A stretch of DNA of 62,018 bases, the filler included. It is 7 parts of 7 records of this genome, joined end to end, with 100 filler letters (N's around TTAATTAATTAA, not from the genome) between each part and the next. Parts side by side here need not be neighbours in the genome. Positions count along the whole stretch, not along the records: positions 6,816 to 16,417 come from SRR7504441_9060; 6 more parts are not named here. The stretch is one strand, 5' to 3'. This document shows positions 3,364 through 61,777 of this stretch, one piece after another. Made by a program: the position numbers and the translations under genes. Numbering within the stretch: position 1 is the stretch's first letter; each line of letters starts with the position of its first letter. A model generated the notes under the pieces. It had not been told where the DNA came from, made no database searches, and saw only the letters and a list, made by a program, of their open reading frames with translations.

Positions 3364-4844
3364 TTATTGTGCATGGACCAACGCCGGCGCTTTTGCCTCC
3401 GGGTCCCATCGCACTGACCCCTTGCCGCGCAAGATCCCGTCCACAGCCGGCCCCACCAGCTCCAGCTGCCACTCAGCCAGCCCGATCGGCTCGCCGGCCG
3501 CCGCCGCCTGCAGCTGCTCCCTCGAAGCGAGCAGCCTGGGTGAGATGCCATGCTCCGCCGCCACCGCTTGCACGGCCGCTTCCAATAGCATAATCAACCC
3601 CATCGGCTGCCGCCGCCTGCCGAGTAGCCGGCCCAGCTCCTGCTCCAGCTCTCTCTCCTGCCGTTGGCTCGCCCACGGCATCCGACGGGGCACACCTCAT
3701 CCGCCTTGGCCATCGCTATCCCGACCGCTATGCAATCAAGCAGCTGCCCGCCCATCCTGGCCCTCGCGGCCTGCTTGAGCCCACCGCACCCGTCCAGCCC
3801 CTCCCAGGTCTCTGGCCGCTGCCCCCGGCTCAGCCGATCGGTCGACCAGTAACACCTGATGAGCGAGCGCCGCTATTGTATCGTCTGAGAGCAGAGCACG
3901 AGGGTGCAGGTTGCGAGCCACCGAGCGCTTCTCGCGCCAACCCGCCAGCTGCTGAGCGCAGTGGACCCCCGGGTGGTCCAGCTTCCTCAGCGCCCGCAGA
4001 GGCAACTGCTGCCAGGTTTTCTTAGGGTCCGGCGAAGATAAAAGCGCTTCCTCGCCAAACCTGTTAGCCATCTCCAACTCAAACCAGCGCTGCCACCGGT
4101 CAGCCCGGCCACCGGAGCCAGCACCTGCCGCTCCGGCTGGGCGGCCAGTTTGTCGGCCAGCAGCTTGTGCAGCGCCAACAGCTGCTCCACGTCGCCGATC
4201 GCATACTCGAGCATCTCCGGGTCCAGAGGCCGCTTAGCCCAGTTACCCTGACTCTGCCCCACGGATCACCCCCCTCTTCGGGGGGGGGGGCACCCATCGC
4301 TTGTCCAGGGTCTGTCCGAGCTGCTGCTGTATCAAGTCGGCAAGACCGATTGAGTCGCCAAGCCCTAGAACGTCCGCCGCTAGCTGAGTGCAAAACCCGT
4401 TGGCCGGCAGCCGGTGGCACGCGCGGTGGATCAGCTTGAAGTCCTGCTGTGGCGCGTGCGCGATCAGCAGCTCTGCCTCGCACAGCTGCCCCTCCGTTCG
4501 CCGGGCCAGCTAGGCCCTGAGCGCCTGCTGGAGCAGCGGCGCTACAGCGGCAGGGCTTCCGAAGGCCTGGACGTCTAGCACCGCCTGGAGATCCCGGGTG
4601 GCGATCTGGGCTGCGGGCTCAGTGGCTGGCTGGCCCCGGTCACCTGAACTAGTTGGAGCTCCGGCACCCGCCGAGGGAAGCTCACGAATTCCGTGTCCAC
4701 AGCCACAGGCCCCCTGGCCGACAGCGCCGACTCCAGACGGGCCAGCCCGGCTGGGGAGTCCACCAGGTCGAACCCCGCCGACGCAGCAGCCCGGCCGCGC
4801 GACCACCGGGCCCCAGCCAACCGGCCCAGCCCCGCTCGGAGCAT
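3364..4844 (-). CDS. rnd: Ribonuclease D-like 3'-5' exonuclease with HRDC domains, probable organellar targeting peptide
   Basis: ExoI VAVDTEF, HAPQQDF, NWAKRPL..LEYAIGDV, HRDC-like LAGWREKRSVARNLHPRALLSD, C-terminal AAEHGISPRLLASREQL..WQLELVG; about 6 short introns; Arg-rich N-terminus MLRAGLGRLAGARWSRG. Confidence 0.85.
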
Positions 4845-6815: not shown

Positions 6816-7453
6816 CTGACCTGTGGGCGTGGGAGAGCGGGTCATCAAGCCATGAGTCTGGCATCAGAGCGAAGCACTCGTCGCACGACAGCCCCTCGAC
6901 GTGCGCCGTTTCGGCAAACACCACGCGATACATGGCCAGTGCCGCCTCGGCGAACGCTTCGAAATCGTAGGGCAGCACCTGGTGCGGCTATCCCAACGCC
7001 CGGCCCTGATGGCGCCTTTATCCGCGGGCAGAGCCGGCGGGCCTCCTTCATCCACATCCCGGCCCGCACCCCATACTCGCGAGCCGGATACCTGCCCAGG
7101 TAGCTCGCAAGCCGGCCTGGCCGCAGCGCACGAGGCACAGGACACTTCGCCGCTGCCCCAGGCCACAACCAGCGGGTCCGGCCGGAGCTCCGGTCGCTCC
7201 CGCGTAGCCACGGAGGCGAAGAAGCAATCCATGTCGATGTGGAAGAACAGCTGGCCGCTCCCGGCCGCCGGGGTGGGCGGGGGCTCCGGCAGGGTGCCGA
7301 TGAACTCCTCGTACCTGACGCCGGCTCAGCCCGGGCCCGGCGGCCAGCCGACCGGTCCTTCCAGGTGCCGATGAAGTGCAGCCGGCTGTGCGCGAAGAAG
7401 CTCTCCATGAACGCCGGGTCCGTCTCCGTGGTCCGCACCGGCCCCGGCTCCAT
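6816..7453 (-). CDS. REV1: REV1-type Y-family DNA polymerase (3' truncated by gap)
   Basis: FFAHSRLHFIGTWK (REV1 N-digit), FHIDMDCFFASV, EVSCASYPAREYGVRAGM, LPYDFEAF, EGLSCDECF; introns at 7315-7352, about 7096-7135 and 6979-7015. Confidence 0.9.
7315..7352 (-). other. 38-nt spliceosomal intron in REV1, near-identical to the EB1 intron
   Basis: gtcggctggccgccgggcccgggctgagccggcgtcag; removal restores KDR|YEEF..HIDMD frame. Confidence 0.85.
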
Positions 7454-7543
7454 CGACACCCAGAGGAGGCACAGTGCCACAGCGGCGCGTTGCCGTTGAA
7501 ACCTGAAATCAGCTGGCCGTTCGGCCTGTTCGGTGGGCTCCGC

Positions 7544-8329
7544 ATGGGGGGGAACTGCTCTAGCTCTAGAGAGGCGGCCCCGGCGCTCGAGCTGGTGGCC
7601 GGCCGGAGCAAGTACGGCGCTGGCGGGCAGTACTGCGGAGGCAATCCACGCCACGCCTTCGGGCACAACCGGGAGAGCCTGATCGGGCTAGTCCTGTTCC
7701 AGACCGAGGCGCAGTGCTGCCGGCTCGAGTGCCGGTACAGCTTCGCCTTATCCTCCGGGCATGGGCACCTGGACCGCGAGTACAACGGCCGCTGGATCAA
7801 AGTGGCTGCGATAAGCAGCCCCGGCTCCTCCAAGGCCGGCCACAAGCTCGGCAAGCCTCTGACGTACTATGTGGTCTTCACTCACGCGCAGGACTTTGCG
7901 GCTCAGACCGGGACCCCTGGGCCACTGAAAGCGCTGGACAAGCCGAGCTTGGTGAAGCTGACGGTGCTGCGGGGACGCGTCATCTTGGACCTAGCCGACA
8001 GCCTGCCGAACGGACTTCTGAGCCAACATTCGCAGTCGGCCGTAATGAACAGTACGACCGCACTAAGCGACGGCACCCCCGCGTTGTTTGACAACGCGGC
8101 GGTGCACGCGGACTTGATCGACGCCAGCCCGGATACGCACAGGAGAACCACCGCACAGGATGACCACGATTCAGTCTTGGTCGAAGCAAGCCCTCTTGGA
8201 AGAGGGCCAGCACATGTGAGCGACCAAGAGGGCTTGCTTGGGCGACCCACGAACCAAAGGGTGACCATACCAGCCAAGTTCCCTATGGACTTGGGTGCAG
8301 CTGCCACCGACATTTTCTGGATAAACTGA
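7544..8329 (+). CDS. Hypothetical protein with N-terminal acylation motif
   Basis: Intronless ORF starting MGGNCSSS (Gly2 myristoylation, nearby Cys), followed by an AT-rich spacer. Confidence 0.65.
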   Translation: MGGNCSSSREAAPALELVAGRSKYGAGGQYCGGNPRHAFGHNRESLIGLVLFQTEAQCCRLECRYSFALSSGHGHLDREYNGRWIKVAAISSPGSSKAGHKLGKPLTYYVVFTHAQDFAAQTGTPGPLKALDKPSLVKLTVLRGRVILDLADSLPNGLLSQHSQSAVMNSTTALSDGTPALFDNAAVHADLIDASPDTHRRTTAQDDHDSVLVEASPLGRGPAHVSDQEGLLGRPTNQRVTIPAKFPMDLGAAATDIFWIN

Positions 8330-8532
8330 GACATGAATAATGAGATGGTAGTACGACATGCATAATTATGTACCGGCAATGATGGTAGCGTTTTTCAAAT
8401 TTATTTAAACCATTTTAATGCGTGAATGAAACCTAGCCTGGGCATTAGATATGACAGAGCCGGTGATAGAGTCCAGCCCGAAAACCATGCTCAACTATCA
8501 CGACCACGCCCTGACGCCTGGCACTATTTGCC

Positions 8533-9607
8533 TCAGTTGGTGATGCTAATATCCGCACATGCAGACCAGACCTGGGCGCTGAACTCGCAGTCCCAACGGA
8601 ACCCGAGCACATACTCGCCCGGCGCCAGATTGTCGGGCACCTTCAGATAGTCGTACATGGTGATATTGGAGATCCACTCGCCCGAGCAAATCCCCTGTCC
8701 GAGCACCTCCGGCTTGGTCGGGTCGTAGCAGGGCGGTGCGAACGGATAGCCCATAGTCTGCAGCCCGGGGCCGCCCCTGGTCATCGGGATCGGCAGCATC
8801 TGCCATGTGCTGCCGGCGGGGAGAGTGCCTTCCGATACGAAGGTCGAGTTCAGGTCGAGCATCGTTCCATTCGACATCATCATCCGCGAATTGCCTGCAA
8901 ACGGGACCGGCGTCTGTTGGAAGCACGCCTCGGTCAGCTCCTCGCCCAGCTTGCAAAGCCGGAATTGCCATCCGCCGCCGTGGTTCGCCCGGATGCTCCA
9001 TCGAGTCTCCACCACAGACCCCGCCTTCCAGACCGCTCCAGACGGCTGTTTCGGGAGCTGCGAGCCCTTGTCGCCCATCTTGGCGTATTTGGTTTCGACG
9101 TAGTACCCCTCTCCGGGGGTGTTGTGGGTGGAGCCCGATGCCAGGCCGCAGGCGTCAAAGACTGGGGCGCTGCCCGGTGCGCGCCACGGATTGAACTTTG
9201 TCCAGTCTTTTTCTGACCCGATGCAGTCGCCCACGCACTCGCGGTTGGTGGTGCGGAGGAGAGGATCGTTGACGGTGGCGTTCATGCCGCTTTTGCACCG
9301 GTCCAGGCTATTGGGGTTGGCCCCCACGGGCTTGCCGTTGATGACGCCCCCGTCACACTCCTTGCACCCGATTGAGCAACCTACCCCCATCCAGAGGCAG
9401 GTCTGGCCGATGTCGCACACGTCAGTCCCGTTCCGGCATGCACAGGCCCGCTTGTCCACGTTCCACCGATCGTCCCAGGTGGCGACGCCGGCCGCCAGCC
9501 CAGCGGGGATCGAACCTGTCGATGGCGTTCCGGGGGATGGGGTAGATCAGGTTGCTGTGCCCGCAGGCCATGTGCGCGAGGAGCAAAGACGCCAGGATGA
9601 GTTGCAT
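8533..9607 (-). CDS. Secreted lytic polysaccharide monooxygenase-like copper protein (frame discontinuity near 9490)
   Basis: Signal peptide MQLILASLLLAHMACG followed by His1 (HSNLIYPIPRNAID), RANHGGGWQFRLC, GEYVLGFRWDCEFSAQVWSACADI; Cys-rich insert. Confidence 0.8.
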
Positions 9608-9731
9608 GGCTCGGATCATGATCATCAGCTGTGCGGATGGCGATCAAGACCTCTAACGGATCCGCAGTCGCCCTATTTTTATCGATAACGTCTCACAGCG
9701 GGCAGCGCCTTGAGAGCAGCGGGGCGCAGCC

Positions 9732-10686
9732 ATGGCGGGGGCTGGGATGGGTGCCAAGGTGCGCCAACAGCCTGGCCGCACGCCGTAACCCTGTCGGGCC
9801 AGATGTTTGGCACCGGCATCCAGAGCCTGGGCGCCGATGACGGCCAAATATGGAACGAATGCCTCGCGCGGGAGGCCAGGCGCCGCCCAGGGCTCTCGCC
9901 CAGCCGGCGAGCGGCGGGGCAGCTCGCAGATGAAGTTCTTTATATCCCAGGGGGTCGACTTCAAAGTCAAGCCCTTCCCCAAGCGCACAGGGTCTGGGTT
10001 CAATCTGGCCGACTGCGCCGCGATCCTACCCCAGTATCACTCCTCTCCGACTAAGATCCCACCGCAGGCAGCCTGCCCGTCGGGGGGGCGCGCCGATGGC
10101 CGGTCAGATCCGGGACCCGAGTTACATCGTGCCCAACGACCCTCGGCTCCGTCCCAAGATCTATAATAGCACCAGGGCCCCGTAAGCCGAGCCGGCGCCG
10201 GCGGCCTGCAGCCGGCGGTCAGGGCTACGTTCGTGCAAGGAGTCGAGACGTCGGCCAGCAGGGTGCCGTCCAAGCCGCTATACATTCCGGGACTCAACAA
10301 AGGCTTTGGAGGTTGCACGCAGTGCATAACGCAGTGACTAACAGCACTTTGAGCAGGCCAGAAGGCACTAGCTCCGGAGGACCAGGCCCGGCTGCAGAAT
10401 TATCCGCCGCCGTTCCCGACCGCTCAGAAATCTCAGGCCACTCCCGGCACCCGGCTGCCGGGCAGCTCCACTTTTGGATTTGGATACAACTTTGATCTTG
10501 CCAAGAAATGCTCGGAATACGGTGCTGGCCCCACCACAGTTTGGGCCGAGTGCGCCGGCAGGAGTGGCCCCTTACGAGAGGAGCTACCGGCCCAACCCGA
10601 TGACTGGCGAGATCTCGTTGTTCGGCAAGCCGATGGAGAGCCCGAGGCCGGCAGAGATCCCGAGAAAGAAGCTCGGCAGATTCTGA
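9732..10686 (+). CDS. Hypothetical multi-exon protein
   Basis: Exons MAGAGMGAK|MFGTGIQSLGADDGQIWNECLAREA|SSQMKFFISQG... linked by short GT/GC-AG introns; the last exon ends KKLGRF* before an AT-rich spacer; internal exon structure only partly resolved. Confidence 0.5.
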
Positions 10687-10952
10687 TTCGCGCTGACGCC
10701 AGGCGCCTTTTGAAAATTAGCATCGTCGCATGTGATGCACACGCACATGTATCGATACATATAAAATTAATGAACTTGAGGAATCAAACTCGATACAGCT
10801 CGATACAGCTCATGTACAGATTTCCATCTATGTATTTTAATACGATATATATTATATTTAGTATTTCGATTATCTCAGCGCTCTTGTAGCGCACAGTTAT
10901 GCACATGGCCGTAGGTCGTGGTCGTACGTAAGGAGCCCGGGCTGCCTCTCTA

Positions 10953-12827
10953 TTACTGCAGGAAGCGACGCCCCCAGTCGGTCTGCCTCTTTTGGTCAAC
11001 CAATTTGCCTTGGTAGTTGATTCGCTTGCCAAAGTCGACAATGGACATCCCAGTTTCCGGCGGTGCGTTCATATGAGCCGGAATCGACTTTCCGGTGAGT
11101 GTGTTTGCCGATTGTGGCCGCTCAATCACAAACTGCCCTCCAGTGTATGGCACCGCCTGAAATACAGACTGTGACATTAATGGCGCTGCTACCACCCTGC
11201 TGGTAGCAATCGGTGGTTTGGCCATTCTTTTCTCGGCTTCTTTGGCTGCTTCTCTGGCTGCACGTTCTCTGGCAGTCCGTTCTCTCCTCTTTGCTTCTCT
11301 AACTGCACGTTCTTGCAACTCCCGAGCGTCGTCGACCTTCTTCTTCGCCTCTTTGGCCGCTCGAAGGTTCGCTGCTGCCACCATTCGCTCCATGGACACC
11401 CGCTGAGCCTGATGGAAGGCCATCTGCCGGGCCTGGCACTGGGCATCCCCGAAGGCCGGATCGTCAGGCCCACCCATTCCGGATCTGGCAGCGCGCACAG
11501 CTCTGAAATCTTCGAGCGCCTTGTTCTTGGCTGCTTCAAGAGCCTCATTCGCCGCTCTAGCCGCATCCCCGAGCTGTATCAGCGAGGCGTTGCCCATGAA
11601 CGGGCCGTCTGCGGATTCGTCTCCAGCCCTGGCTGCTGCTCCCAATTCTGCCAAGCGTTGCCCATGAACGGACGTGCAAGTGAGTCCTTGGGTAGCGGCG
11701 GTTGCGGCTGCGTTGGCGGCCCGGGCGGCTGCTCCGAGCTCCCAAAGCGTCTGGGCCGGGCTCGGGGTGGGGTCGACTGAGATCTTCCTTGGCCTCCCTC
11801 TCCTGCCCACCGAATATTCCTCCTTGGTCACCTTGGAAACCGGATGAGCTGGCGTTCCCTGCACGATCCCAGATTGGAAACAAGAATCGCGTGGGCCAAG
11901 ATCGGTCGGTGCCGAAAACCCGGCCAGCTTGGCGCTCATCTCCATCCGAAGCTCCTCCTCCTCCTCGTCCTCGTCGTCCTCGTCGTCGCTCATCATGTGA
12001 TCTTGTTCATCCACTTGCCAGTTCTGTTGGTCGTTTCGGTCTTGCTCGTGCCCTCGGGTCCCACCTTCAAGACTCATCTGATGGCCTTGCGGGTCCGCCG
12101 CGAAGTTGGCCGCTCTCAGATCACGGATAGCCCGCTCGATCGCCGGATCGTATCGCATCGGTATGATACCACCCATCACAGGGTTCCCCTCCATTTGGCC
12201 GGGCAGATCGGTGCGCTGAGGCTCCGCCACGGAGGCGCCGGCCGACCACTTATCGTTGGGCACGTCGAGTCCCTGGAAGGTGCTTTGGCCGGGCCTGGAG
12301 TTTTGGCCGCCTGGGAGAGTTAAGAAAGGGCGGGGGGGTTCGGTAGGCCCCCACAGGTCCTGGCCTTGATACCGCTCGCAGTCAGGATGAAGCTTGAGAT
12401 AAGCCGGCAAGTTGCACTCGGACGGGGCCGCGTTCCCGCACACCTTGCGCTGGGCTTTCCGGTCCCAAAGCGGGACCCGCCGCCGGTTCAGGGGGACTTG
12501 CTCTTGAGCGGCTCGTTCGAGTTCGGCAAGCATCAGCTCGCCGGTGGGGTCGCCTTCAAGCTTGTCCGGAAGAGCGTCCTGCGAGATTCCAAACCGTTGG
12601 CACAGCTTGGCTTTCTTGGCCTGGACCGATGCGACCCGCCGAGCTGGCCAGCGCTTGATCCCGCACTCGCGGCAGGCGCGCTTGAAGACGGTGATGCCCA
12701 CTCCGAAACGGCGGGCGGCCTCCTTGAGCGGCAGATGAAAGTGGTCCTCCAATACCTTCCGGTTCACTCGGCGGCCGACTCCAATCATGTTCAGCCCCTC
12801 TGGGGCGCGGCGCGGATGGAAGCCCAT
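10953..12827 (-). CDS. RWP-RK transcription factor with BRK-like domain and AT-hook
   Basis: LEDHFHLPLKEAARRFGVGITVFKRACRECGIKRWPARR; RRVPLWDRKAQRKVCGNAAPSECNLPAYLKLHPDCERYQGQD; RRGRPRK; coiled coil. Confidence 0.9.
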   Translation of the reverse strand: MGFHPRRAPEGLNMIGVGRRVNRKVLEDHFHLPLKEAARRFGVGITVFKRACRECGIKRWPARRVASVQAKKAKLCQRFGISQDALPDKLEGDPTGELMLAELERAAQEQVPLNRRRVPLWDRKAQRKVCGNAAPSECNLPAYLKLHPDCERYQGQDLWGPTEPPRPFLTLPGGQNSRPGQSTFQGLDVPNDKWSAGASVAEPQRTDLPGQMEGNPVMGGIIPMRYDPAIERAIRDLRAANFAADPQGHQMSLEGGTRGHEQDRNDQQNWQVDEQDHMMSDDEDDEDEEEEELRMEMSAKLAGFSAPTDLGPRDSCFQSGIVQGTPAHPVSKVTKEEYSVGRRGRPRKISVDPTPSPAQTLWELGAAARAANAAATAATQGLTCTSVHGQRLAELGAAARAGDESADGPFMGNASLIQLGDAARAANEALEAAKNKALEDFRAVRAARSGMGGPDDPAFGDAQCQARQMAFHQAQRVSMERMVAAANLRAAKEAKKKVDDARELQERAVREAKRRERTARERAAREAAKEAEKRMAKPPIATSRVVAAPLMSQSVFQAVPYTGGQFVIERPQSANTLTGKSIPAHMNAPPETGMSIVDFGKRINYQGKLVDQKRQTDWGRRFLQ

Positions 12828-13052
12828 GGCAATTGGCGACTCTAGCGCTCGACCCCTCAATCAAAGAGACACCCCCCCTTTGCGGGGTAGCAAACAGGCA
12901 GACGACTTGCAGACTTTCTGCAAGCTCAACGTCACCCCTCGCACCAACGGAATCGAGGCATCACTCTGTGTGCAGCCGATCGAGCGCCTCCTTGTGCAGC
13001 GCCTGGACCGCCTTCGGCCTATCTCGCTACCCGACCTCGGCACTGTCAGCCA

Positions 13053-13916
13053 ATGGGCGCACCCGGCGCCCTGAGCAGGACCTTCCTGTGGAGCTACCAC
13101 CGGAGCCTCTCGCACGCGCTGGCCCGGTCGGTGCTGCAGCTGCCGTCGGTCCGGGTGCTGCACGAGGTCTATCTGGCAGCGGTGGTCTTCGGGAGCGACA
13201 GGCAGGAGGCCACCTACGCTGGCTTCGGCCCTGTCCGGCCCTGCTCTTCTTTCACGGCCATCCGGGACAAGCTGGCAGCCTGGGACGGCGAAGCGTCTGC
13301 TGATGGGCCGCGTGGCCGGGTCGACCGGCGGCATCTGTTCGCCAAGTGCTCCCCGCTGTATCAACTGGACCAGGACCTGGCGCTAACACTCCCGCGAGCT
13401 CGAGCCCCCCGGTACCGGCACGCTTTCCTGATCCGGCGGCCCGATAAGGTGGCGCTGTCCTTGTGCGAGCTGGCCGAGCAGGCGGGCGGCAGCGGGGCGG
13501 ATTATGAGAACGCTTGCTCGCTGCTGGCGTGCGACCTGGCTGAGACGCACCGGCTCTACAAGCATGTCACGGCTGGTGACGAGCCCACAGTCGTGATCGA
13601 CGCTGACGACCTGCTGGCCGATGCTTCGCGGGTTGTGTCTGGGCTCTGCGGTGCAGTCGGCCTCCCCTTTGAGCCAGCCATGCTCAGCTGGCCGGCCGGC
13701 CCTGTCGAGGGTTGGCTACCGCACGGCACAGCAGGCTGGGAGCGAGGTCCGTTCGCTGGCGTGTTTCGGAGCACAGGGTTCGTACAGCCAGCGGAGCAGG
13801 TAACCGTCAAAGACAACTTGCGCAAGCTTCCGGCAGAGATGCGCTCGGTGGTGCAGCAGGAGTTTCACCTTTACTCAGAGTTGTACGAGGCCCGGAGCAT
13901 CTTTGAGCCGCCGTGA
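13053..13916 (+). CDS. Sulfotransferase-like (P-loop fold) protein
   Basis: FLWSYHRSLS, VLHE, HAFLIRRP, VVIDADDLL..LCGAVGLPFEPAMLSW, STGF, typical of the BCAT-associated sulfotransferase-like family. Confidence 0.75.
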   Translation: MGAPGALSRTFLWSYHRSLSHALARSVLQLPSVRVLHEVYLAAVVFGSDRQEATYAGFGPVRPCSSFTAIRDKLAAWDGEASADGPRGRVDRRHLFAKCSPLYQLDQDLALTLPRARAPRYRHAFLIRRPDKVALSLCELAEQAGGSGADYENACSLLACDLAETHRLYKHVTAGDEPTVVIDADDLLADASRVVSGLCGAVGLPFEPAMLSWPAGPVEGWLPHGTAGWERGPFAGVFRSTGFVQPAEQVTVKDNLRKLPAEMRSVVQQEFHLYSELYEARSIFEPP

Positions 13917-14405
13917 CTCCGTGTTGTAGAACAGACCAAGTCAGAGACTTTTACCGCAGCGCACCGGACCTCTGCCACGGTCTTGCAGGATCTACATGCG
14001 TGCACAGACAGCCGCCCAGGCACCGTCCGGTGCAGACTGCTTCGTTAAATGTCAGTCAGATGTGCCGCAGCGCTGAGGACACGGATCCCAGCAGCAGTCC
14101 AGTGAGAGCGCCTATCCACGACCTTCGCCAATCCGGAGTACTAGGGCTGATTGCTCTACCGAGACTGTACTCGTGTACCTACTACCACCTATCAAGCTGT
14201 ATATAAGCTGTACGCACTCTACGTTTTGAGTTCTGGGATGGTGCAAGTAAATTGTAAGTTTGTAACTAAATGATAATTGAGCGAATAGTAAGCGAATCTG
14301 AAGCGAATAGCACATCATTACATGTACACATTTATTTTTCATTGGAGCCCTCGCCAAACTAATACGCTACTGAATACTAAGCTTACTACGTACTGGTACA
14401 CAATT

Positions 14406-15673
14406 TCAGTTGCTTGTGATCGGCTTGCTGTCAAGCGGGCATGAGTCGCGCCGCGTCAGTAACCACCGATCTGACATTCGCCCCACGATCAGCCCGCACC
14501 CTGGCCCGGCGCGCTGACCTATGCAGTCACTGTGGAACTCATGTCCACACGGCAACCTCCTCACCTGTCCGACACTCGCCAGCTGCCCGACCCGCGGCCG
14601 ACCTCGTCCCCCTCGTCGCAGCTCCCCTGGCACACCGCGCACAGCTCCGGCTCGCCATTCACCGGCCCGACCCGTCGGAGCTGGGTCCGAGCCTCAAGAG
14701 TCGCCCGCGAGACCACTCTGCCTTGCGGCGGCTGGGTTAGCTCATGGCTCTGCATCGACTCCTGAATAACCTGCGCCAGCTCCTGCTGCTCCACCCGCCG
14801 CTCCCGGCGAGCTGCCGCCTGTAGGAGAACGTCAGTTATCCCCCGCTTGAGAGAGGACAAGTCGCGCCTCATCTTACCCAGCTGGCTGTCTCGGAGGGCG
14901 CCATCGGCAAGCCCCTGCAGCCGGGCCAGCCGATCTGACGCCTGCGCTTGCAGCTGCTGGGCATGGTATCTGCGCATCGGCGCCTCCGAGCTGCAAGCGC
15001 CCTCGTCTCGTCTGGACAATCCCGCAGCTGGCTGGTGTTCGGGCTCAGAGGCTCGCGATTGCTCGACTTGCCCGATCAGTTGCTCAACTTCGCCGATCAT
15101 CCGAGCCGCCGCCTTCTGCTCCACCTGATCAATCATCGAGTCCATCGCCCGCAGCAGCCGCGAGGCCTCGATCAGTTTGACTTCGGCCAAGCGCGGCTGC
15201 TCCTCGGTTTCCACCGGCGGCTTCTCCTCCAGTCGGTGCGGGCCTCGCCCGCGGTGGTCAGCTGGGTCGCTGAGTCTCTCAGCCGCGTTTGGCGCCGCAG
15301 GGCCCACAGCCGCCAACGGAGCGTCTAACGCTGCCTCTTCTGGTTCGAGGACGGCATCCTCCGGGAAAAGCTCCCGGCGCACCTGCCGCGACGCCTGCCT
15401 CGGGGCGCCGCCGAGGGCACGATCCATCGCCTGCCGCGCCGCCAGGACCGCGTCGCTCCACCTGGGGGCGCTGTCGGGCATTCGTTGCTCTTCGAGCCCG
15501 AAGATCCTAGCCCGCCACACCCGGCCTTGCGCCGCGGCCACTGAACGGCGCGAGAGTTGGCGCGGGCTGGCGGCGGGCTGGCGGTCGGTCCGGTCCGGGC
15601 CGGGCACCGGGCTTGGGCCGAGCAGTCGATTCATGGCCGACTGGGCCGCGGCGACGGCCGACGACGAGCTCAT
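14406..15673 (-). CDS. RING-H2 E3 ubiquitin ligase
   Basis: Spliced C-terminus CAVCQGSCDEGDE|VRRLPCGHEFHSDCI|DRWLLTRRDSCPLD (last ligand is Asp); coiled-coil middle region. Confidence 0.85.
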
Positions 15674-15736
15674 GCCGCGCCGATCGCGTACCGGTAACTT
15701 CCACCAGTTCAATAAACCGACGGAGCTGACGGTGTG

Positions 15737-16417
15737 ATGAATGAGGGCGGCGAGGCGGCGGCGGCGGCTGGAGAGGAGGAGGAGGAGGAGGGCCACCTGC
15801 TGGCGGGGCTGCTGCGCGCGCTGAGGGCGCTGGCCCGGCCCCGAATGGCCCGGGCCGGACTGGGACGGCTGGCCAATCACGGCAGCAACGCCCTGGACGG
15901 CTACCAGCTGCTGAAGGCCCGGGCGGAGCAACAGCCCAACAACCGGCGCAGCCGTGTGGCTGCGGTGCTCAGCCGAGAGCGAAGCGCTGGCGGGCGGCTG
16001 GGGGTGCTCAGACACCTTGGGTATCCGCTGCTGCTCAACACCGCGCTGGGAGCGGCCATGTTCGACGTTTATGACGCGGCAGCTACCAGGCTGCCGCTCG
16101 ACGGCGGAAGCCCCGGGAGTGAGGGGCTTCGGGGGCTGTGCGGCGGTGCGCGCCGGGCCGGGCATCCCAGGGAGCGGGTGGGCAGGTGTGTGTGCCGGTG
16201 GCTTCTTCGGAGGCTCAACTGCGCTGTGCACCGCAGTGCTCGAAGGAGCGCTCGACCGGCGGCCGCCCGACCGCCGGGCCACACTGGCTCTGACGGCCCG
16301 GGCGGCGGCAACCGAAGCGCCTAGCTGTGCGCTCTGGCTGGGATCATACTTTTACCTCAAGGTAGCCTTGCAGCTGGTGGCTGTTGATGCGGGGCGTAGG
16401 GGCACCTACTGAGGGTG
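15737..16417 (+). CDS. Membrane protein, possibly a divergent mitochondrial carrier (3' truncated)
   Basis: Helices LNTALGAAMFDVYD, WAGVCAGGFFGG and APSCALWLGSYFYLK resemble SLC25 helices; the signature motif is degenerate. Confidence 0.4.
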
Positions 16418-35371: not shown

Positions 35372-36050
35372 CTAGTCGGCCACAGCTATGAAATCAGTTT
35401 GTGCTTGCGGTGATGGCGTATCAAACAACCGTACTAAGCTGGGCAGCATGCCTATCGTGAACTCGATCTGACAGCCGCCCATCGTCACGAAAGGGTAGTC
35501 CTCCTCCGCCGTCCCCCCAAACTCGGAGCTCGAGCTCCCGCCAAAGTGACTCAGGATCTCCTCCCCGGCCTTCCCGGCCTCCGGGTCCGGGCTCAGGCAA
35601 CCATCTAGATCCTCCTTCCAACTGTCCAACACGTCGACCAGATCCGCGTCGCAATCCTCGTTCCCCGTGCTCATGATCGTCTCCTTCAACCGGATCAACC
35701 CCGCCGCCTCGGTCTGCCGTTGCTGGCTCATCTGCCCGAGATCCTTCCCTCCTAACTGACTCATCCGCTTCTCGATCTTCTTAAGCTGTCCCCGGGGCTC
35801 GGGCCGAGCCGCCGGACCGGGCGCGCACCTTGCGGAACGGCCATCGGCGTATCTGGTAGGAGCGGCAGAGCCGTTTGAAGACGGTGGTGCAGATCCCAAA
35901 CTCCTTGGCCACGTCGACCATCGGGAGGTGAAAATGCTGCTGGAGCATGGAGAAGGAGATCTTGTTAGTCCGGGAGCGTTTAGGCGAGCTCTCGTCTTGC
36001 ATCCCGCCCCCCCCGCGCGTGGACCCGTCGAGAAGCGGATTCCTCTCCAT
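35372..36050 (-). CDS. Small RWP-RK transcription factor (RKD/MID-like size), 211 aa
   Basis: ISFSMLQQHFHLPMVDVAKEFGICTTVFKRLCRSYQIRRWPFRK|LKKIEK; single 43-nt intron at 35786-35828. Confidence 0.9.
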
Positions 36051-36353
36051 CTGCGGAGCCGCGTCCCTGTGGTTGGGCTTGTGGCTGGTTGTTGCGCAGC
36101 GGGCGAGATCTGCAGACTTCTGTCTTTTCTCGATTAACACTGGAAACTTCCAGCTATAACGAGTGGAAACTCCGGAACATCGGAAACTCCGGCTGTCCGG
36201 GAAGCAGACAAAACAAAGCAGATCTGCACCAGCCCCCGCTGCCACCGGGCCCGGGCCCGCAAACCGGTCGAACCTCCGGGCCGCGGGCGAGCCGCGCTCC
36301 AGGCCTGACCCCATCGCCTCCAGAGGCCGCGCCGCGTATTTACGTCACGCTAA

Positions 36354-37706: not shown

Positions 37707-38836
37707 ATGCAGGTGTGCGTGGTCGGGGCCGGCTCGTTCGGGAGCGTGATCGCCCGGGTGCTCGGGGAGCGCTGCCGGGATTCGGGCGGGCAGTTCGCCC
37801 CGACGGTCCACCGGCCGGCCGGCCTCGGCCCGATCGGCCCGGCCAGGTGCGGCTGTGGGCCCGGCGGGAGGCGCTGGCGGCCGAGCTGAACGGGCAGCAC
37901 ACCAACCGACAGTACCTCGGGCCGGACTGCCGGTTCCCAGAGAACGTGACGGCCAGCGCCGACTTGCAGGCGGTGCTCCGCGGGGCCGCGGTGGTGGTGT
38001 TGGCCGTCCCCAGCAGCTTCCTGGAGCAGACGCTGGCTCAGATCCGGCTCCCGCCCACGGCGGTTGTGGTCTCACTGCTCAAGGGGCTGCACTTCGACCC
38101 CGTGGCCTGCCGGATAGACCCACTGAGCCGGCAGCTGGCAGAGCGGCTCGGGTGCGAGGTGGCGGTGCTAATGGGTCCGAATATCTACACAGAGATGGCC
38201 GCCGACCAGTTCGCCGAGGCTACAATAGGCCACCGCGGCACGCACGCCGAGACGCTCGCCCAGCTGTTCAGCGTGCCGCAGCGACTGGCGGTCCGGGTGC
38301 ATCCTGACGTCGTCGGGGTCGAGATGTGCGGCGCACTGAAGAACGTGGCATCACTGGCGGCCGGCTACTGCCAAGGGCTCGGACTAGGAATGAACGTCAA
38401 GGCGGCGGTGATCCGGCTGAGCTATGACGAGATACGCCGGTTCTGTGAGCGGTTTTTCGGGACCGATAGCTCGGTGTTCCTTGAGGCTTGCGGAATGGGA
38501 GATTTAATCCTGACGCTGCTCGCAGGGCGCGGGCAGCAGCTGGCCGAAGCGTTCGTCAAGGCCGAAGGCAAATCAAGCTGGAGCGAGTTGGAGGATCAGC
38601 TGATGAACGGGATGAAGCTGCCCGACTGGCATAACGCGCAGTACATGCATCAGTTCCTCACAGCGAACAAGTGCGAGCAGGACTTCCCTTTGTTCAAGGC
38701 CATCTTTGACATCGGGTTCGGGGGGGCCCCGGCCGCGTCAATCGTCGGCTGCCTGGAGAAGAAGATCCGGATGCACCCGCCGGCTGTCCCGCCGGAGGGC
38801 ACGCACAAGCGCAAGCTCGACGACTTGCAAGCATGA
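37707..38836 (+). CDS. GPD1: NAD-dependent glycerol-3-phosphate dehydrogenase
   Basis: VVGAGSFGS, N..HTNRQYL, VSLLKG, VLMGPNI, GVEMCGALKNV, CGMGDLILT; intron 37806-37846. Confidence 0.93.
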
Positions 38837-42100: not shown

Positions 42101-42739
42101 GACTTCGTAGACCGAATCAGGTGGCGATACCCAAACTCTGTGGAACTGACTCGTACCAGGGATGCCAAGGACGAGGAGACTGCCAATCTGGCGCACGTTG
42201 GACAACTCCAGCAAGAGTTTGTTGGGAAACGCGACCGCGCACATACCGGAACCACCTTCTTGGATGGCCACAAGGCTGTCAATGGTCTGTTGCAGAACAA
42301 CATCAAGCTCATGCAGACGGTAGGCAGCTCGCCTGCCCCCTGCCCGCTGGGCTTGAGAGTGGATGGCAGACGTACAGGGACAAATGTATAGTCGAGCCTA
42401 GCTTCTTCACTACAGTCCATCAGATTCCGCCCGAGCAAGAGGACGTCGAGCACGCGTATTTTTGGGTGGACAAACATCACCAGTGGACGTAGCTGCACAC
42501 GCCCGGGCATTGAGACTGAGACTATCGGGGGCCAGGACTGTGCTCTTCGAGGGGGTGGAGCTTGACTTACTGTTGCTTGATATCTACATGTTCATAGTAT
42601 TTGACTTCGCCTGCAAGCAGCCGATTGCGAGCATGGTCTGCTTGTATTTCTTCCAAAAGCTGGTCGACTTTGTCCGTCTCGAGCTGGGTACCCAGAATCT
42701 GGCTAAAAAGTCTTTCCTCGGACCCAGATTCTTCATGTA
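39122..42739 (+). CDS. TMEM67: Meckelin (ciliary transition-zone membrane protein)
   Basis: Signal peptide, Cys-rich ectodomain, CQMLANMCVL, RRFFIVDNLSG, DIFFIDWE, VSTWRSLFVANEF, SLSNIS..GYYLHG, LGTQNLAKKSFLGPRFFM*; about 10 introns of 39-50 nt. Confidence 0.93.
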
Positions 42740-43043: not shown

Positions 43044-43840
43044 TCAGCTTTCCGCCCTCACCTCAAATCTGGGCTCCGGCTCATACAATATGTCTGATAG
43101 CTCATCACAGCCCTCTAAATTCGGATAGAACTCGCACAGCATCTGCCAGGCTCGGTCACCCCGCCGCTCGGCCGTCGCGCCACCTCCATCTTGCGCAGCT
43201 TGCCAAACGCCTCAGCGCGCCTCTCCTTGAGCCAGCTCGCCTGCGAATGCACCTGCTCCAGCTCCTGAATCCGCTCCTTCATCTCGGCCGAAAGCGTCTC
43301 GAGCATGTTCTCCAGTTCAACCTTTCGTTGCTCATCTGGCGCAATCACCCTTGCTCACCCACTCGAGCCCAGGCGCACCGATATCGTCCGTAGGCTCCTC
43401 TACCGGGGCTGGCTCGGCCAGCTGGCGCGACTCCCGGCTAAAGTGGGCGTGACACCACTGCAGGAACTCCAGGTTGTCTTGCACCCGGCTCTTGGCCAGC
43501 TTGGCCACTGGCCGCCGGCTCAGCCGCTATGGGCGGGACAGGCGTCACCCTCCACTTCCTTGGGCAGCCCAGCTTTCTTGAAGGCGTCCCGCAACACCCG
43601 CAGGTTCCGGCTGAAGTCCGTCTCGTATCTGGCCTCCACTGCCGCCGGCTCAGCCCGGGCCCGGGGGCGAGCCGCACTATTAAGCCTGTGGAGTTGGATC
43701 TGGCCGGGGTAGCCGCTATTGAACAACTGAGCGTAGGCGATCCCGTCGCCCAGCTGCTCCACCTTGGTGTACTCCCGCTCGGTGAACTGGTTGAGCCAGG
43801 CCAGCAGCTCGTTCCGCCCCAAGCCCGAGTGCCGCGGCAT
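43044..43840 (-). CDS. EB1/MAPRE-like microtubule plus-end protein (CH domain + EBH)
   Basis: GRNELLAWLN..YTKVEQLGDGIAYAQL, coiled coil, FGKLRKME|MLCEFY..DILYE; short introns including 43639-43677; 3' end could extend by one more exon. Confidence 0.85.
43639..43677 (-). other. 39-nt spliceosomal intron in the EB1-like gene, near-identical to the REV1 intron
   Basis: gtgcggctcgcccccgggcccgggctgagccggcggcag; removal gives HRLNMEARYE, matching EB1 CH-domain spacing. Confidence 0.75.
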
Positions 43841-44118
43841 GGCTGCTCTGCTCAACCCGGGTTGCGCTGCTCGCCCCTGTGGCCCAACTCAAACTTGAAG
43901 CTGGACCTCTTCGTCAGCTGCAGTGTCGTCGAGGCTCGCAGATTCATGGCGATTTCGACTCTAGATCTACTCTCACAATTCAATGATACAATCTTGAGTC
44001 TACTAGTGGTACCTGTATGCTTATAGTACCTGTACGTACTCGTTTGCTTACTCAGTACTAGCTAGAGAGCACCAGGTACTGACTGTAACAAGTTATGCTA
44101 AATCCCGAGCGTGGGAGC

Positions 44119-45572: not shown

Positions 45573-47239
45573 ATGGCCACCCTCCATCCTCGCACGATTG
45601 CTAATGATTGGGAGTGGACGAACCTGACGGTCTTCCCGGCAACCGAAACGCCCAGCCCGAGCAATGGACCCTCGGCGGATGATGGCGATGCTCGAGCACC
45701 CGATCGTGCAGCGCATCCTGGACCGGTAGCCCGCCCCCACCCGCGCGGGCCGCACGGCGGGCAGGGTGGAGCGCGCCAAGCAGCGGGGCGGGTTCGTAGA
45801 CGAAGCCATGCGCGAAGAGGCTTGGGAGCAGGCCCGGGAGGCCGTCCGGCGGGAGAAGCTGCTCTACTCTCTGGCGGACGTCACCGGGGCCCAGCTGGCT
45901 GCCGTGGAGCTCCGGCAGCTGATCTATTGGGACGTGGTCGCCCAGCTCGGGCTGCTAATCGCTGGGCTGCTCTTCACGCTGGTGTCTATCGCCAAGCATG
46001 ACAGTCTGGTGTGCCACGTTTACTGGGCCACTCTGGCGTTCCACATCGGGCCGGTGGTCGCCGGATGCCGCGTGCTCGCCGTGGCCAATCAATTCGAGGT
46101 CTGGGCCAACGAGGCGATCCATCAACGGCTGCCGCTCGGCTGGCTGGGCAAGAAGCTGGCGGCCCACAAGCCGCTGCTCGTCTGGTGCTGCCCGCCGATC
46201 GCGCGGCTGAGGCCGGTTTCAGGTACCTCGGATTTGTGTCTGTGGCTGCAGTGGCCGACTTGGGCTGTCTCGCGGGCGTACTCACTATGGACACGCCTCA
46301 CGGGGACGATCTGACGCCGTATGCGTTTGTGATGGTGCTAGTCTGCTCCATGTTCTGCCTCGATCTGGTGATCTTCCTCTGGATACCGCTCGCGCTGCAC
46401 AGAATCCGCGACGAGGTCAGGTATCCGGTCCCACGCGGCTCTTAACTCCGGGGCAGCACTGGGCCAAGCTCAGGCCGAAACTGGTGGCTGCCCTCCCCTG
46501 GTGCAGCTGCTGCTTCTCGGCCGCAACTGTCGACGATCTGAGCCTGCAAGAGCCGGCCACGCCCGGCCGTGGGTGCGCGCTGCTGGGCTTGAGAGTGGCT
46601 CATCTGAGCTGTGGCAGCCGCCGGAGTCTCGGTCTGTTCTTTGAGGAGAACTGTGCAACAGGGCTGCCCAGCACGCCGCTGGGGCCTCTGTTGGCCAAAT
46701 GGTGTGACGTGCGGCGGGGCGATACAGTCGACGGGGGCGGCAGCGTAGACTTGATTCTCACGGTGTCGCCTGTGTGCCGGCTGCGAGCCTGACTCGGCCC
46801 CAGGGCTGCGGTGCAGTCGGGGCCTCGGGGCTGTGCTGGGTGCCGCAAGCTGAGCTGGCCGAAGGTGACGTGCTCCGCTTCTCGGAGTGTTTATTCCGAC
46901 CGACCGCAGGCACCGCCGCCCTCGCCGTGAGTGTGTAACCCTAAGCCCAGATGGGCCCACCCCTAGTGCACGTGGGGAGGCTGGCCGACCGCACTACGCG
47001 GTGGTGGCCGGGCTGGAGGCGGAGGCGGTGCAGCTGCTCGAGCAAGGGCTAGGCCAGGCCAACATAGTGGCGAGCGATTGTGTTTGTTTGGACCAGCTCG
47101 CGTCGGTCTGCCTGCCTGAGTAGACAGGGCTGACCGGCAGGTGCCTAGGGGAATGTCAAGGTGTTCAGACCGGTCGATCAGACTCGAGGGCGGAGCGAGT
47201 CCAGCGATAGCGACAAGTCTCAGCAAGCTAACGGGCTAG
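45573..47239 (+). CDS. Hypothetical multi-pass membrane protein (multi-exon)
   Basis: Several hydrophobic exons (VVAQLGLLIAGLLFTLVSI; FVMVLVCSMFCLDLVIFLWIPL); exon boundaries approximate. Confidence 0.5.
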
Positions 47240-54451: not shown

Positions 54452-57400
54452 TCATTGGAATATTTGATCGCTCATCCCTTGCGTATGTGCACAGCTCTCC
54501 AGAGAAGACGCCAAGATTAAGTTGTTCTTCACCTCTTCGACACTAGTTGATTCAGGCAAGAAGAGCGTATTATTGCAAGACCTCGCTGCCGGCAGCGGTG
54601 ATGTGATATGGATTGGCTTGGCGATTTGTACCTTCATAGAAGGCAGGCCGCCAGGGTCTAGTCCCCTCTTGGCAGTCACGAAATGCAGGAAGTCTTTCCG
54701 TTGCTCATTGTCAAGCTGCACCAGCGCGCCAACTAAATGATGGAACGAGGAGCTTTCCCTCGTGTATCCAGCAATAGGGTGCAGGTACTGAAACAGACTT
54801 TGCCTTTCGGCCTCCTCCACCTGGGCCTGGGGGGTGTCTGTGGGTGGATTCGGCCAGGCCCAGCACACTTGCGTGTCGGTGCACAGCAGTTTGCGCAACT
54901 CGCGTGGCTCGAACAACTGGACTTGTCGAGGCTCGAATACGTCGCTCATCCCCTGCCTGAAAGCCTCTACCTGCTTGGCCACGCCTCTGTGAAACCATAG
55001 CTCGCACAACTCGTCGACAAACCGGCGGAGCGATCCTGCAGTTAATTCGACTTCCTCGTCTTCGCCTCCTGGGTGTAAGTCCAGCTGAGTGATCCACTCA
55101 TCGCGGAAGACCAACCCCAGACCCGTGAAAACATCCGCCACCGAGTCTTCACTGTCACTGCATGACGGGTCGACAGTTGACCAGCGAAGCTTGTTGATGT
55201 CGACATCATTCTGCGACTCAAGAAGCTGCGCCAATTGTGAGAGTCCTTTGATTGGAACCGGCGCAACGGAGGGTAAGTCCGCAGGACCCAGAACACTACT
55301 GAGAACTAGCTTGAAGAATGCAGTGGAAAGAGGCAGGGGCACAGTGTAGTTATCCCTCAGGGCCCGTGCGAGCAATCTCCCAATGAAACGCCACTGGCTT
55401 GTGGCCACGGTCACACTCTCGGGGTTCTCAATATCGATGGGCCGTGGGAATAGCCCCTCATTTGGTACCTCCACTAGGGCATCCGCCTCTTTGCCAATAC
55501 ACCCCGTTGGGAGGAACACCAGATGTGAATCTGAAAAGGTAGACTGCATCTGCAGCGCCGCAATGCAGGTATAGCACTCCTGGGTGACTCCAGAGCCGAA
55601 GGCTTGATCACGATTCTGAGTCATTTCTAGCACAGACCTTGAGGAGCTGTGAGTTTCAAATAATTGCTGTAAATGAAGGAGAGCCTCGCTATTCTTAAGA
55701 TCCGGAACCTTGGCCATTTCTACGCGGAGAGTGCCAAGTTGGTGCTCTCGGATTCTCTCTCTGATCTCTACAGAAACTGCCTGGGCTTGCATCAGCTCCA
55801 TTTCGGCTTGTTGCTTCTGCTCTGCAGTCGAATCTTGTTTCAATTGACCAGCTTGTACCGAGGCCAAGAACTCTCTCTCCAAAGCAAACTGCTCCTGGCT
55901 TCGCAGCTGCTTCCGTCGTATCAGCCTTTCCTGCATCCAATACAGACTGTGCGACACCCCATAGCTTGTACACTCAAACAAATCCTTACGGACACTAAAG
56001 TCGAGTAGCGAATGGGGCACAACAAAGCACCACTTCGGCAGGACCTGGGTAGTCATTGAAAGCGCGTCCTCCAGCTGATATCGAAGCTTCGAAGTCAATT
56101 TACGATTCACCCACTTGAGATTCGCCTTGTCTACAAACTGCTGGTGCAGCAGAGCAAGCAATGTGACCGCAGCCCGCGCCTCCGGGTTCTGCAGCCCGCA
56201 GTTCTTCAAACGCTGTGGGAGTTCCGCAGTTGGGGGAGGCAATAAGAGCTGTCTGCCCGAATCTAGACTGCGAGGCGCCGAGCACAGAGAACGATATAGC
56301 TCGAACAGTCGTTGCCACTGGTTGAGCGAAGCAACCACATTTGGTGGCCCCAATAGACCCATTTTGTGGAGCCAATTTGCTCTTCCTAAGTGTTGCAGGC
56401 TTTGCACAAACTCTTCTTTGGAGGCCGATTGAGACTCGACAGCACTGCAGAGCGTGTCGTCACTCGGCCAAGGCAGGCTTCGGCCCATGCTCGGCTCCAG
56501 TCCCAAGGCAGTGTCTCTAAGCAGGCAACCAGGGCCCACATTTAGTACATTGATGGTGTACTTTAACTCGTACCTGCGCCGCCACGGAGCCTGGGTAAGT
56601 GCCTTCCTGTGGTGATTATGGTATAGCATTTGGATGCACTGGAAGAATGATGCATCGTCTGGCAACTGGATGGTGGCTGGATCTTTTTTGTTGATTGTTG
56701 AGACCGGACTCTTTTTGCAGGTTTCGCTTGGCAGTCCATCAACGCTGAACTCAAAGCGCAGGCTCACCTCAGGGTGACTTGTTTGCTGGTCGGATTGCTC
56801 ATCACTGGAACTCTCTTCGCTGCTAGGGGCTACCTCGATGCGATTGACAGTGCTTTTACCATCCTTGTCGTGCCTCTCGAATGCGGCCATTGCTCGCTCC
56901 AGAGGTACTGAACTATTGGCTGAGCGTGTTCGCCCTAGAGGTGAGCGACTCTGCACCTTAGGGATTCGAAGCCTGCTGGCTGGCACGTTGGTCTCAACGG
57001 TCCCCTCGTCCGAGACCACAGCAAACACCTTACCCTCGTCGGCCTCGTCGATAATAGTGACTTGCATCCAGGGAGATTCCTCGTTTGCTTCCTGCTTCTC
57101 GCATTGCACTCTCTGACCTGTGCGCATCTTGCTTCCGCCGTCCTGAAGTGTTGGAAGGGCAGGCAGCAGCCTAAGACTCTTCTCATGGGTTGTCTTGCGC
57201 TTAATACACTTGACATCGGCATCCGAGAGGTGCTCCTCGAGCGCTGCGGTAAGCATTTGGCACACGGCAGTTGCCTCGGCCTCGGTCTGGACCACTGCGA
57301 TGTCGAGCTCCACCTTATCCTGCCCATCTGGCAGCCCTTTCGCAGCGATTTGTAATGCGGCCACTGTTGAAGCAAACTCGTGAGCGTCTCCAGGAAATCC

Positions 57401-60400: not shown

Positions 60401-61777
60401 CCCACTAGGCACAAACGAGCCATGCCCGACCCGATCCGAGAACACAGGCGTGCGCCGGTGGGCCACTCCGCGGCTGGAGGTTACCTGGCATACCACCAGC
60501 TCGTCTGTCTCCTTCCAGTCTAGTGCCACGCTGGCAAGCGTCGAAGCGAGTGACACCGCACTCGAGAGCGTGTTGCTATCCTCGCTGTGAGCCTGGGTCG
60601 TGCCCAGGACCTGGGAGAGCTGCTCCAGTAGCCCTAGCTGGCACAGCTCGCAGAACTGGCGCAGCCCCATCCCGCACCGCTTGATGATCCGGTGGCACGC
60701 CAACTCGTGAGTCGCCATCGTGTCCGCACCCGTGAGCCCAAGGTTGCTCACTTCGGCTGGCCAGTCCACAGAGTCGTCCGCGCAGACGTCCTCATTCCGA
60801 CCGGCGCCCACGTCGCCCATGTCGCCCATGTCGCCCATTAGGCCCATCTCTGCGTGGTTGAACAGCCCTGCCAGCCCGGGCAGTCCGCCATTCGCCTCTA
60901 GCATCATTGCAGGACCAAGCTGTCTCTCCACAGCTCGGAGCAAATCAGGGCCCAGCTGCGCCTCCATCTCCTCCAGCTGCTCCAACCGGAACATCCCACT
61001 CAGGCTGGATTGCCGGAGTAACCGCTGCATCCGCGAGGGCGACGGGAGCTCCGGAGGCTCAGGTTCATCGTCCGGTTCGCCGTCGCCCGAAGGGATGCAG
61101 CGCTTGCACACGTCATACGAGCAGAGCTTGCACAGCCAGCGCTCGGTGCCCGGCGGCCGGGAGGTGCCACAGATGTCGCAGTACCTGCCCGGCAAGTCAG
61201 CTGCAGGCACGGGGCACGGGCTGGGCTGGTGGGCAGGCAGGGAGTGCGCACCAGTTGCCGAGGGCGTACACTCCGTCTGTAGACGTGGATAGCTCGATCG
61301 GGTGGCCATTCCGGCACACGTTCTCCTCGGACGGCGGCGAATTGGGCTCCGGGCCAGCTTCCGGGGCCGGGGGCGTTTCTTGGTGGCTGTCCAGGCTCTC
61401 CAGCAGATCCTCCTCCTCCTCCGAGTTGGAGATCTCGGACTCGACCAAGTCGGTGATGGCCGCCCCCGGCCCGATCATATACTCTGGATCGCACGATTCG
61501 GGCATCCACTCGTCCGGCTCGCCCCCCTGGTTCTCTGCTTGCCCGCACAGATACACCATCGCCTCATCGTAGTCGCCTGCGGCGAAGTCGAGCGCCTCCT
61601 ATCCCAACGCCTCGGCCTCTCCGGCCAGCCCGGCCGGGCGCGGACCTCCAGCTGCTCGTCCGAGAAGCAGTCGCCTGAGAGGCCCTCACATTCCAAGCTG
61701 TTGAGCACCTGACCACCGGCGGTGAGCCCAGCCAGCCGGACCGGGGGCACGTCGCGGAAGTCCTCGAGTTGCGACAT
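54452..61777 (-). CDS. Large HECT E3 ubiquitin ligase (TRIP12/UPL3-like) with UBA, ZZ-like finger, ARM, WWE and Tudor-like domains
   Basis: C-terminal HECT (FIGRLLARALRD, FLHFVT, LPAARSCNNTLFLP); VNRKLTSKLRYQLED; UBA LQGLKLANGNLEMAINLLF; WWE-like WSDFEPGPSAILESAY; introns 61709-61750, 61599-61645, 61185-61251. Confidence 0.92.

Follow-up and report, generated by a model that had tools for sequence, protein, structure and literature searches.

Two mini-introns of an uncultured marine protist, one in a gene resembling that of the Y-family polymerase REV1 and the other in a gene of the EB1 family, are nearly identical in sequence. The question which they raise is whether one was copied from the other, and if so by which route, or whether both arrived at a similar sequence independently. 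Where new introns come from is still debated, and introners are known from Micromonas and Aureococcus, the algal introners of these two genera being reportedly the subject of work by Huff and colleagues in 2016. Both introns lie in a 62 kb stretch of DNA that was analysed as a whole and is referred to here as the window, which consists of 7 contigs joined with N spacers.

Introns were predicted with a purpose-written, frame-aware Viterbi gene finder which was trained on the window itself. Its final output comprises 172 introns in the window; of six reference introns (five seen in RNA and the REV1 intron) it recovers five exactly and calls the remaining one with a donor 6 nt upstream. The set used for all comparisons consists of 161 predicted introns of 30-70 nt, which are our own predictions and surely include false calls; 11 introns outside this range were left out and the mis-called reference intron was swapped for its RNA-supported form. 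Intron length has a median of 41 nt (interquartile range 38-46) and is unbiased modulo 3, and the mean GC content of the predicted introns in the window is 63%. The intron grammar of the organism is narrow. Among the 65 best-scoring introns (score 2 or more) 31 start with GTGC and 33 end in GCAG, CCAG ends also being part of the grammar, and the branch 5-mer is CTGAG in 28, CTGAT in 14 and CTGAC in 13, with the branch A mostly 11-15 nt before the 3' end of the intron. A GC content of 80% or more is reached by 10 of the 161 introns, the REV1 and EB1 copies both included.

Pfam searches with 57 predicted exons point to ordinary eukaryotic genes, and scans of the window for Rfam families and tRNAs gave no matches. 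Two genes on different contigs, at 10977-12845 and 35829-36335 (both on the minus strand), have RWP-RK domains with E-values of 2e-19 and 3e-20. An intron-free predicted exon at 54458-60064 (minus strand) encodes a HECT ubiquitin ligase (1869 residues) that also matches WWE weakly, and sits within a stop-free frame of 2340 codons (54455-61474), which is unusual given that the genome is otherwise dense in mini-introns. RNA evidence comes from one marine metatranscriptome run, the sole run found to contain some of the sequence (share 0.08), whose contigs cover 4 of the 30 bins of a 20-kb stretch.

The REV1-like gene contains the following features.

7315-7352, minus strand: copy 1, predicted GT-AG mini-intron in the REV1-like gene (38 nt, 84% GC, phase 2)
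7319-7340, minus strand: exact 22-nt shared core in copy 1, which includes the CTGAG branch motif
7353-7480, minus strand: REV1-like exon upstream of copy 1, which ends in TDPAFMESFFAHSRLHFIGTWK and matches REV1
7132-7314, minus strand: REV1-like exon downstream of copy 1 (Pfam IMS, E 6.4e-08)

The exon ending in TDPAFMESFFAHSRLHFIGTWK matches the REV1 chains 7t18_A, 2aq4_A and 3gqc_A of the PDB, which are from yeast and human REV1, and its best seven PDB matches are all REV1 at weak E-values of 0.03 to 0.9. The downstream exon opens the Y-family polymerase (IMS) domain and has human REV1 (3gqc_A) as its top PDB match. The two exons are in different frames and can be joined only by taking out 38 nt, which is the sole GT..AG span at this place with the correct length modulo 3. 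The same span is predicted by the gene finder with a positive intron score, and its branch A lies 11 nt from the 3' end. From reading frame and homology we infer that 7315-7352 is a spliced intron.

The EB1-family gene contains the second copy and a further intron beside it.

43639-43677, minus strand: copy 2, GT-AG mini-intron in the EB1-family gene (39 nt, 87% GC, phase 1)
43643-43664, minus strand: exact 22-nt shared core in copy 2, from the sequence match
43678-43842, minus strand: EB1-family exon upstream of copy 2, encoding the CH domain (Pfam CH, EB1/EB3 structures, RNA contig)
43549-43638, minus strand: EB1-family exon between both EB1 introns (RNA contig; aligned to EB3 past a gap of 13 residues)
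43508-43548, minus strand: neighbouring EB1 intron (41 nt), spliced out with GT..AG ends in the same 396-nt RNA contig as copy 2

Copy 2 is a spliced GT-AG intron. A 396-nt RNA contig skips exactly 43639-43677 and otherwise differs from the window by 0 letters; the skipped stretch reads CT..AC on the plus strand, which is GT..AG on the minus strand, and the ambiguity of the joint is 0. The unspliced EB1 translation, when aligned to the CH-domain structures of EB3 and EB1, shows a gap of exactly 13 residues (39 nt) at copy 2. The unspliced EB1 ORF has 0 matches at near lengths in the protein database searched and 1 distant match (37% identity) at longer lengths. Inside the EB1 gene, at 43447 and 43485, two contigs of RNA run X1 part from the window with loose ends of 23 and 135 nt, and these diverging ends could represent another isoform, another strain or a chimeric contig.

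The two introns read exactly as the original prediction had them. They lie on different contigs, as it had said, in the segments 6816-16417 and 25162-45272, and our alignment agrees with its count of 35 identical positions in 39 aligned columns and with its perfect run of 22 nt, CCGGGCCCGGGCTGAGCCGGCG. The four differences are a single-base indel after the GT, two G/C exchanges in the 5' half and one T/G exchange three bases before the AG. With up to 3 mismatches allowed, the 22-mer has 2 matches in the window compared to an expectation of 0.02, and a count of 2 or more came up in 0 of 100 shuffles. Among all 12,880 pairs that can be formed from the 161 introns the REV1/EB1 pair has the longest shared run and a global identity of 90%, the next-longest shared runs being 17, 15 and 13 nt. 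A local-alignment scan over both strands of the window gives the partner a score of 30 and everything else a score of at most 19, and the corresponding null maxima in simulated sequence are 15.5-19.5.

The significance of the shared run was assessed with five nulls of 1000 replicates each, the statistic being the longest run common to any pair, and these include the shuffles preserving composition and branchpoint that had been proposed as a check. The probability of a run of 22 nt or more is 0.001 when each intron is shuffled with its first four bases, branch 7-mer and last three bases held fixed; it is 0 under a Markov model of order 2 trained on introns, under Markov models of order 3 and of order 4, and under a column shuffle anchored at the branch and at both intron ends. 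The usual null maximum is a run of 12-14 nt. Three large collections were scanned with the 22-mer as chance controls only. The JGI metagenome collection holds one match, at the end of a GC-rich bacterial ORF that has no GT..AG frame around it, IMG/VR holds 0 matches, and the GTDB prokaryote genomes (596 billion bases) hold one match in a MAG of the Acidimicrobiaceae. The matches in bacteria are chance ones, and the organism is absent from all three collections. The JGI collection is without the two copies of the window and is therefore silent on the size of any family.

A likeness of this kind could in principle arise by chance or convergence, if two introns obey the same narrow grammar of a GTGC start, CCGG/GGCC filler, a GCTGAG branch and a fixed distance to the terminal CAG without sharing descent. 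The short median length, the frequent CTGAG and the confined position of the branch A all lend this reading some weight, as does the presence of both copies among the few introns at the upper end of GC content, and a wider cluster of introns that carry CCGGGCTGAG is accounted for in full by a Markov model of order 3. Against it stand a probability of at most 0.001 in all five nulls, the fact that the columns outside the 22-nt run are mostly identical too, an alignment score that neither the rest of the window nor simulated sequence approaches, and the fact that the 22-mer is hardly found in GC-rich prokaryote and metagenome DNA amounting to hundreds of billions of bases. The nulls cannot capture all constraints on mini-introns of 85% GC. 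Chance or convergence is nevertheless very unlikely for the REV1/EB1 pair, which is homologous beyond chance with a similarity that is confined to the intron. In blastn with the introns and 20-nt flanks as input, the pair aligns over 36 nt at 91.7% identity (52.7 bits), with an E-value of 1.2e-7 that rests on an assumed intron database of 8 Mb. The alignment opens at intron base 3-4 and closes with the final base of the intron, and there is no relation between the exon flanks; since the match ends at the bounds of the intron, the unit of homology is the intron with its boundaries included, and neither a larger duplicated segment nor an insert inside an older intron. The host genes themselves, which encode a REV1-like Y-family polymerase and an EB1-family CH-domain protein, are unrelated. 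One mini-intron was probably copied from the other.

Two further explanations accept common descent of the sequence and differ in what is thought to have moved. One is a DNA-transposon introner of the MITE type, which spreads by cut-and-paste and brings terminal inverted repeats, a target-site duplication (TSD) and its own splice sites. Both copies do carry a subterminal inverted repeat of 5-6 bp (CGGCT/AGCCG), as the original prediction had pointed out, along with a central palindrome, and TSDs or terminal inverted repeats (TIRs) are given for 59.2% of the 130 introner families with assessable ends in the sections of PMC9860276 drawn on here. The repeat lies away from the termini, however, and confers no gain in folding: the predicted folds, in which CGGCT and AGCCG are paired, have energies of -18.8 and -19.7 kcal/mol, yet relative to 200 dinucleotide shuffles their z-scores are -0.09 and +0.43. 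Any 38-mer of 85% GC folds likewise, and taken together the 161 introns are no more structured than expected (mean z -0.11, p = 0.20). The AGTG direct repeat noted earlier across the EB1 junctions is present, with one copy at offsets -1..+3 and the other at -2..+2 from its junction; this shift of one base in register means that it is no target-site duplication. The RNA joint of the EB1 copy is unambiguous, and a duplication of the AGTG type would leave a frameshift after splicing. The junction repeat in register is 0 nt long in EB1 and 3 nt long in REV1, which is chance level (null probability of 3 or more, 0.33), and there is no excess of such repeats over the 161 introns, 7.5% of which have 5 nt or more compared to 6.75% in the null. 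Antisense or intergenic copies, which a transposon might have left, are absent from the 62 kb, a far too small sample for this purpose. A cut-and-paste route is the less likely one, and we regard a MITE-like element as decidedly improbable.

The other explanation is that both introns are cousins which captured their sequence independently, two separate break repairs having been filled with one and the same dispersed repeat of high GC content, or with part of another intron. That pieces of sequence can move on their own is suggested by the intron adjacent to copy 2 in the EB1 gene, which has the 3' block alone, and by two other predicted introns, unrelated to these and located on separate contigs, that have a 17-nt run in common at different offsets. 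Random filler would not be expected to take in a whole intron together with both splice sites, as the similarity does here, and the window contains no non-intronic copy of the sequence from which it could have been drawn. Independent capture is therefore considered unlikely.

An exact run of 17 nt, GCTGGGCTTGAGAGTGG, is found at 42346-42362 and 46582-46598 (both on the plus strand) in predicted introns on different contigs. It has 2 matches in the window compared to 0.03 expected, and the null probability of a longest run of 17 nt or more is 0.006-0.027. The hosts are the introns 42320-42369, in a Meckelin-like gene, and 46573-46617, and the offsets of the run within them differ. The first of these is a candidate intron of low score, and an RNA contig extends 24 nt into 42320-42369.

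The neighbouring EB1 intron has a 15-nt 3' block, GGCTGAGCCGGCGGC, in common with copy 2 and 13 nt in common with copy 1, and its 5' half is unrelated. The 15-nt run is the longest among 123 adjacent intron pairs; the probability of 15 nt or more between adjacent introns is 0.0125 in per-intron shuffles, and 0 of 400 order-3 Markov replicates reached it. At the variable site near the 3' end the neighbouring intron reads GGC, as does the EB1 copy, compared to GTC in the REV1 copy. The block and the agreement at this site point to a local exchange or a partial copy within the EB1 gene.

The absence of an in-register duplication and of an above-chance terminal inverted repeat, together with a unit of homology that equals the intron, makes it most likely that the intron was copied as such. 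On balance we favour the view that the two are ordinary-sized spliceosomal mini-introns and copies of each other, a GC-rich intron of about 38 nt having been copied boundary to boundary between unrelated genes. The copied unit would have supplied all the splice signals itself, namely the 5' splice site, a branch site with CTGAG and a 3' splice site with CAG. An RNA-mediated route is preferred since transposon hallmarks are absent, the boundaries are kept exactly and each copy lies in sense orientation, although with n=2 the orientation carries no statistical weight. In such a route another transcript would take up the excised intron by reverse splicing and would then undergo reverse transcription and recombination; alternatively, intron-derived DNA may have been captured during break repair. 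Within the EB1 gene, the adjacent intron may in addition have come to share the 3' third locally, through gene conversion or the copying of a part. The direction, the route and the copy number of the copying are inferred.

How far the copying extends beyond the pair is a separate matter. The window contains 2 full copies and 1 intron with the 3' third only, and no further copies in either orientation were found outside introns within its 62 kb. The original prediction had named introns in a gene labelled Kir and an intron in an ARM/LRR gene as weaker relatives. They do carry CCGGGCTGAG, which has 6 exact matches in the window, 5 at the branch site of predicted introns and 1 (45226) outside, but they align with the pair at chance level, the best score being 19 compared to a null maximum of 15.5-19.5. 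Nine introns are linked via common 11-mers, and 24 intron pairs have such 11-mers in common compared to an order-3 Markov expectation of 22.8, with 214 of 500 replicates reaching 24. The introns with CCGGGCTGAG were for these reasons rejected as homologues of the pair; convergence is the better reading for them, and they are GC-rich filler beside a GCTGAG branch motif and not a product of descent. Of the gene labels, LRR near 34680 is confirmed by a domain match, and three exons of the gene called Kir gave an EF-hand match only. There are 5 occurrences of the 9-nt sequence CTGAGCCGG, all of them at branch sites of predicted introns (3825-3833, 7321-7329, 38123-38131, 43515-43523 and 43645-43653); dinucleotide shuffles give an expectation of 1.58 and reach 5 in 2 of 100 cases. 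It may represent a preferred branch-to-acceptor module or decayed copies.

The initial proposal was of an introner family of about 40 nt or of convergence. A copied pair fits an introner and convergence is rejected for the pair, but a family is unsupported. The pair could conceivably be the tip of a large family of tens to hundreds of self-contained mobile mini-introns, with a length of about 38 nt and a GC content of 85%, in a deep-branching marine protist. Such a family would have spread without TIRs or TSDs and probably by RNA reverse splicing, and we hold this extension to be doubtful. To find one homologous pair among 161 sampled introns would imply that a sizeable share of the introns belongs to multi-copy families: one pair per 12,880 corresponds to a sum of squared family sizes of about 1/12,880 of the squared intron count. 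The window was singled out among 32 of the genome, which lowers this sampling estimate about 30-fold and makes it very loose.

Isolated near-identical pairs of introns at unrelated positions are said to have been described from Oikopleura dioica by Denoeud and colleagues in 2010, who reportedly took them as traces of intron copying. The present case resembles these in being an isolated near-identical pair and differs in lineage. A formal definition of introner families is provided by Gozashti et al. 2022 (PMC9860276), the sections of which drawn on here specify a BLAST match of the intron and up to 20 nt of flank at an E-value of 1e-5 or less, similarity that starts and ends no more than 5 bases into the exon or 10 into the intron from the respective boundary, non-paralogous host genes and at least four introns per family in one genome. 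The REV1/EB1 pair lies on the introner side of the BLAST, boundary and non-paralogue thresholds, and 2 full copies are seen compared to the four required. Introner families in the same sections have lengths of 30-654 nt and a GC content of up to 83.3%. The closest in kind are five families of Blastocystis sp. ATCC 50177/Nand II with a mean of 30 nt, 83.3% GC and 4-10 copies, for which the TSD/TIR entry is '?' (PMC9860276, Supplementary Table 6). Going by these table entries, the Blastocystis families are like the pair in being GT-AG introns that are extremely GC-rich and no longer than the usual mini-introns of the organism, and differ in being 30 nt long with 4-10 copies in a gut stramenopile, whereas here the introns are of 38-39 nt with two full copies in a marine protist.

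Other introners are more distant. According to the same sections of PMC9860276, algal introners and those of the DNA-transposon type are near-identical introns in unrelated genes whose similarity stops at the boundaries, which is also true of the pair, but they have TSDs of 3-9 bp and/or TIRs and exist in hundreds to thousands of copies, also outside genes. The pair is negative for both TSD and TIR and has no extra copies in the 62 kb. The introner-like elements (ILEs) of fungi exceed regular introns in length according to the portion of PMC3609843 used, are predicted to fold stably and number in the hundreds. They share with the pair the lack of TSDs and TIRs and, as presented in the sections of PMC9860276 referred to above, are restricted to genes and read as spreading by RNA-mediated reverse splicing. 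The pair differs from the fungal elements in its ordinary length (38-39 nt compared to the median of 41 nt) and in having no excess structure. The string 'Telonem' is not found in the part of the PMC9860276 supplement that was available, and a search for literature on Telonema, introns and genome gave no paper about nuclear introns among those listed, as far as titles and the starts of abstracts tell.

The REV1 and EB1 introns make up a well-supported pair in a lineage of very short introns and are a lead for a genome-wide intron census, not a demonstrated new element. Introners of this kind are already known down to very small GC-rich introns, as the table entries for Blastocystis illustrate; novelty would lie in the lineage and, provided that it is confirmed, in a copy that runs from boundary to boundary without a transposon signature. 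Clean copies of exactly the intron which lack a transposon footprint bear on the question of whether introns spread as RNA. In a copy of 38 nt the splice signals take up nearly all the space, and it would hence set a lower bound on what an intron needs in order to propagate. If the large family were true, an intron could propagate with little more than its 5' and 3' splice sites and its branch site.
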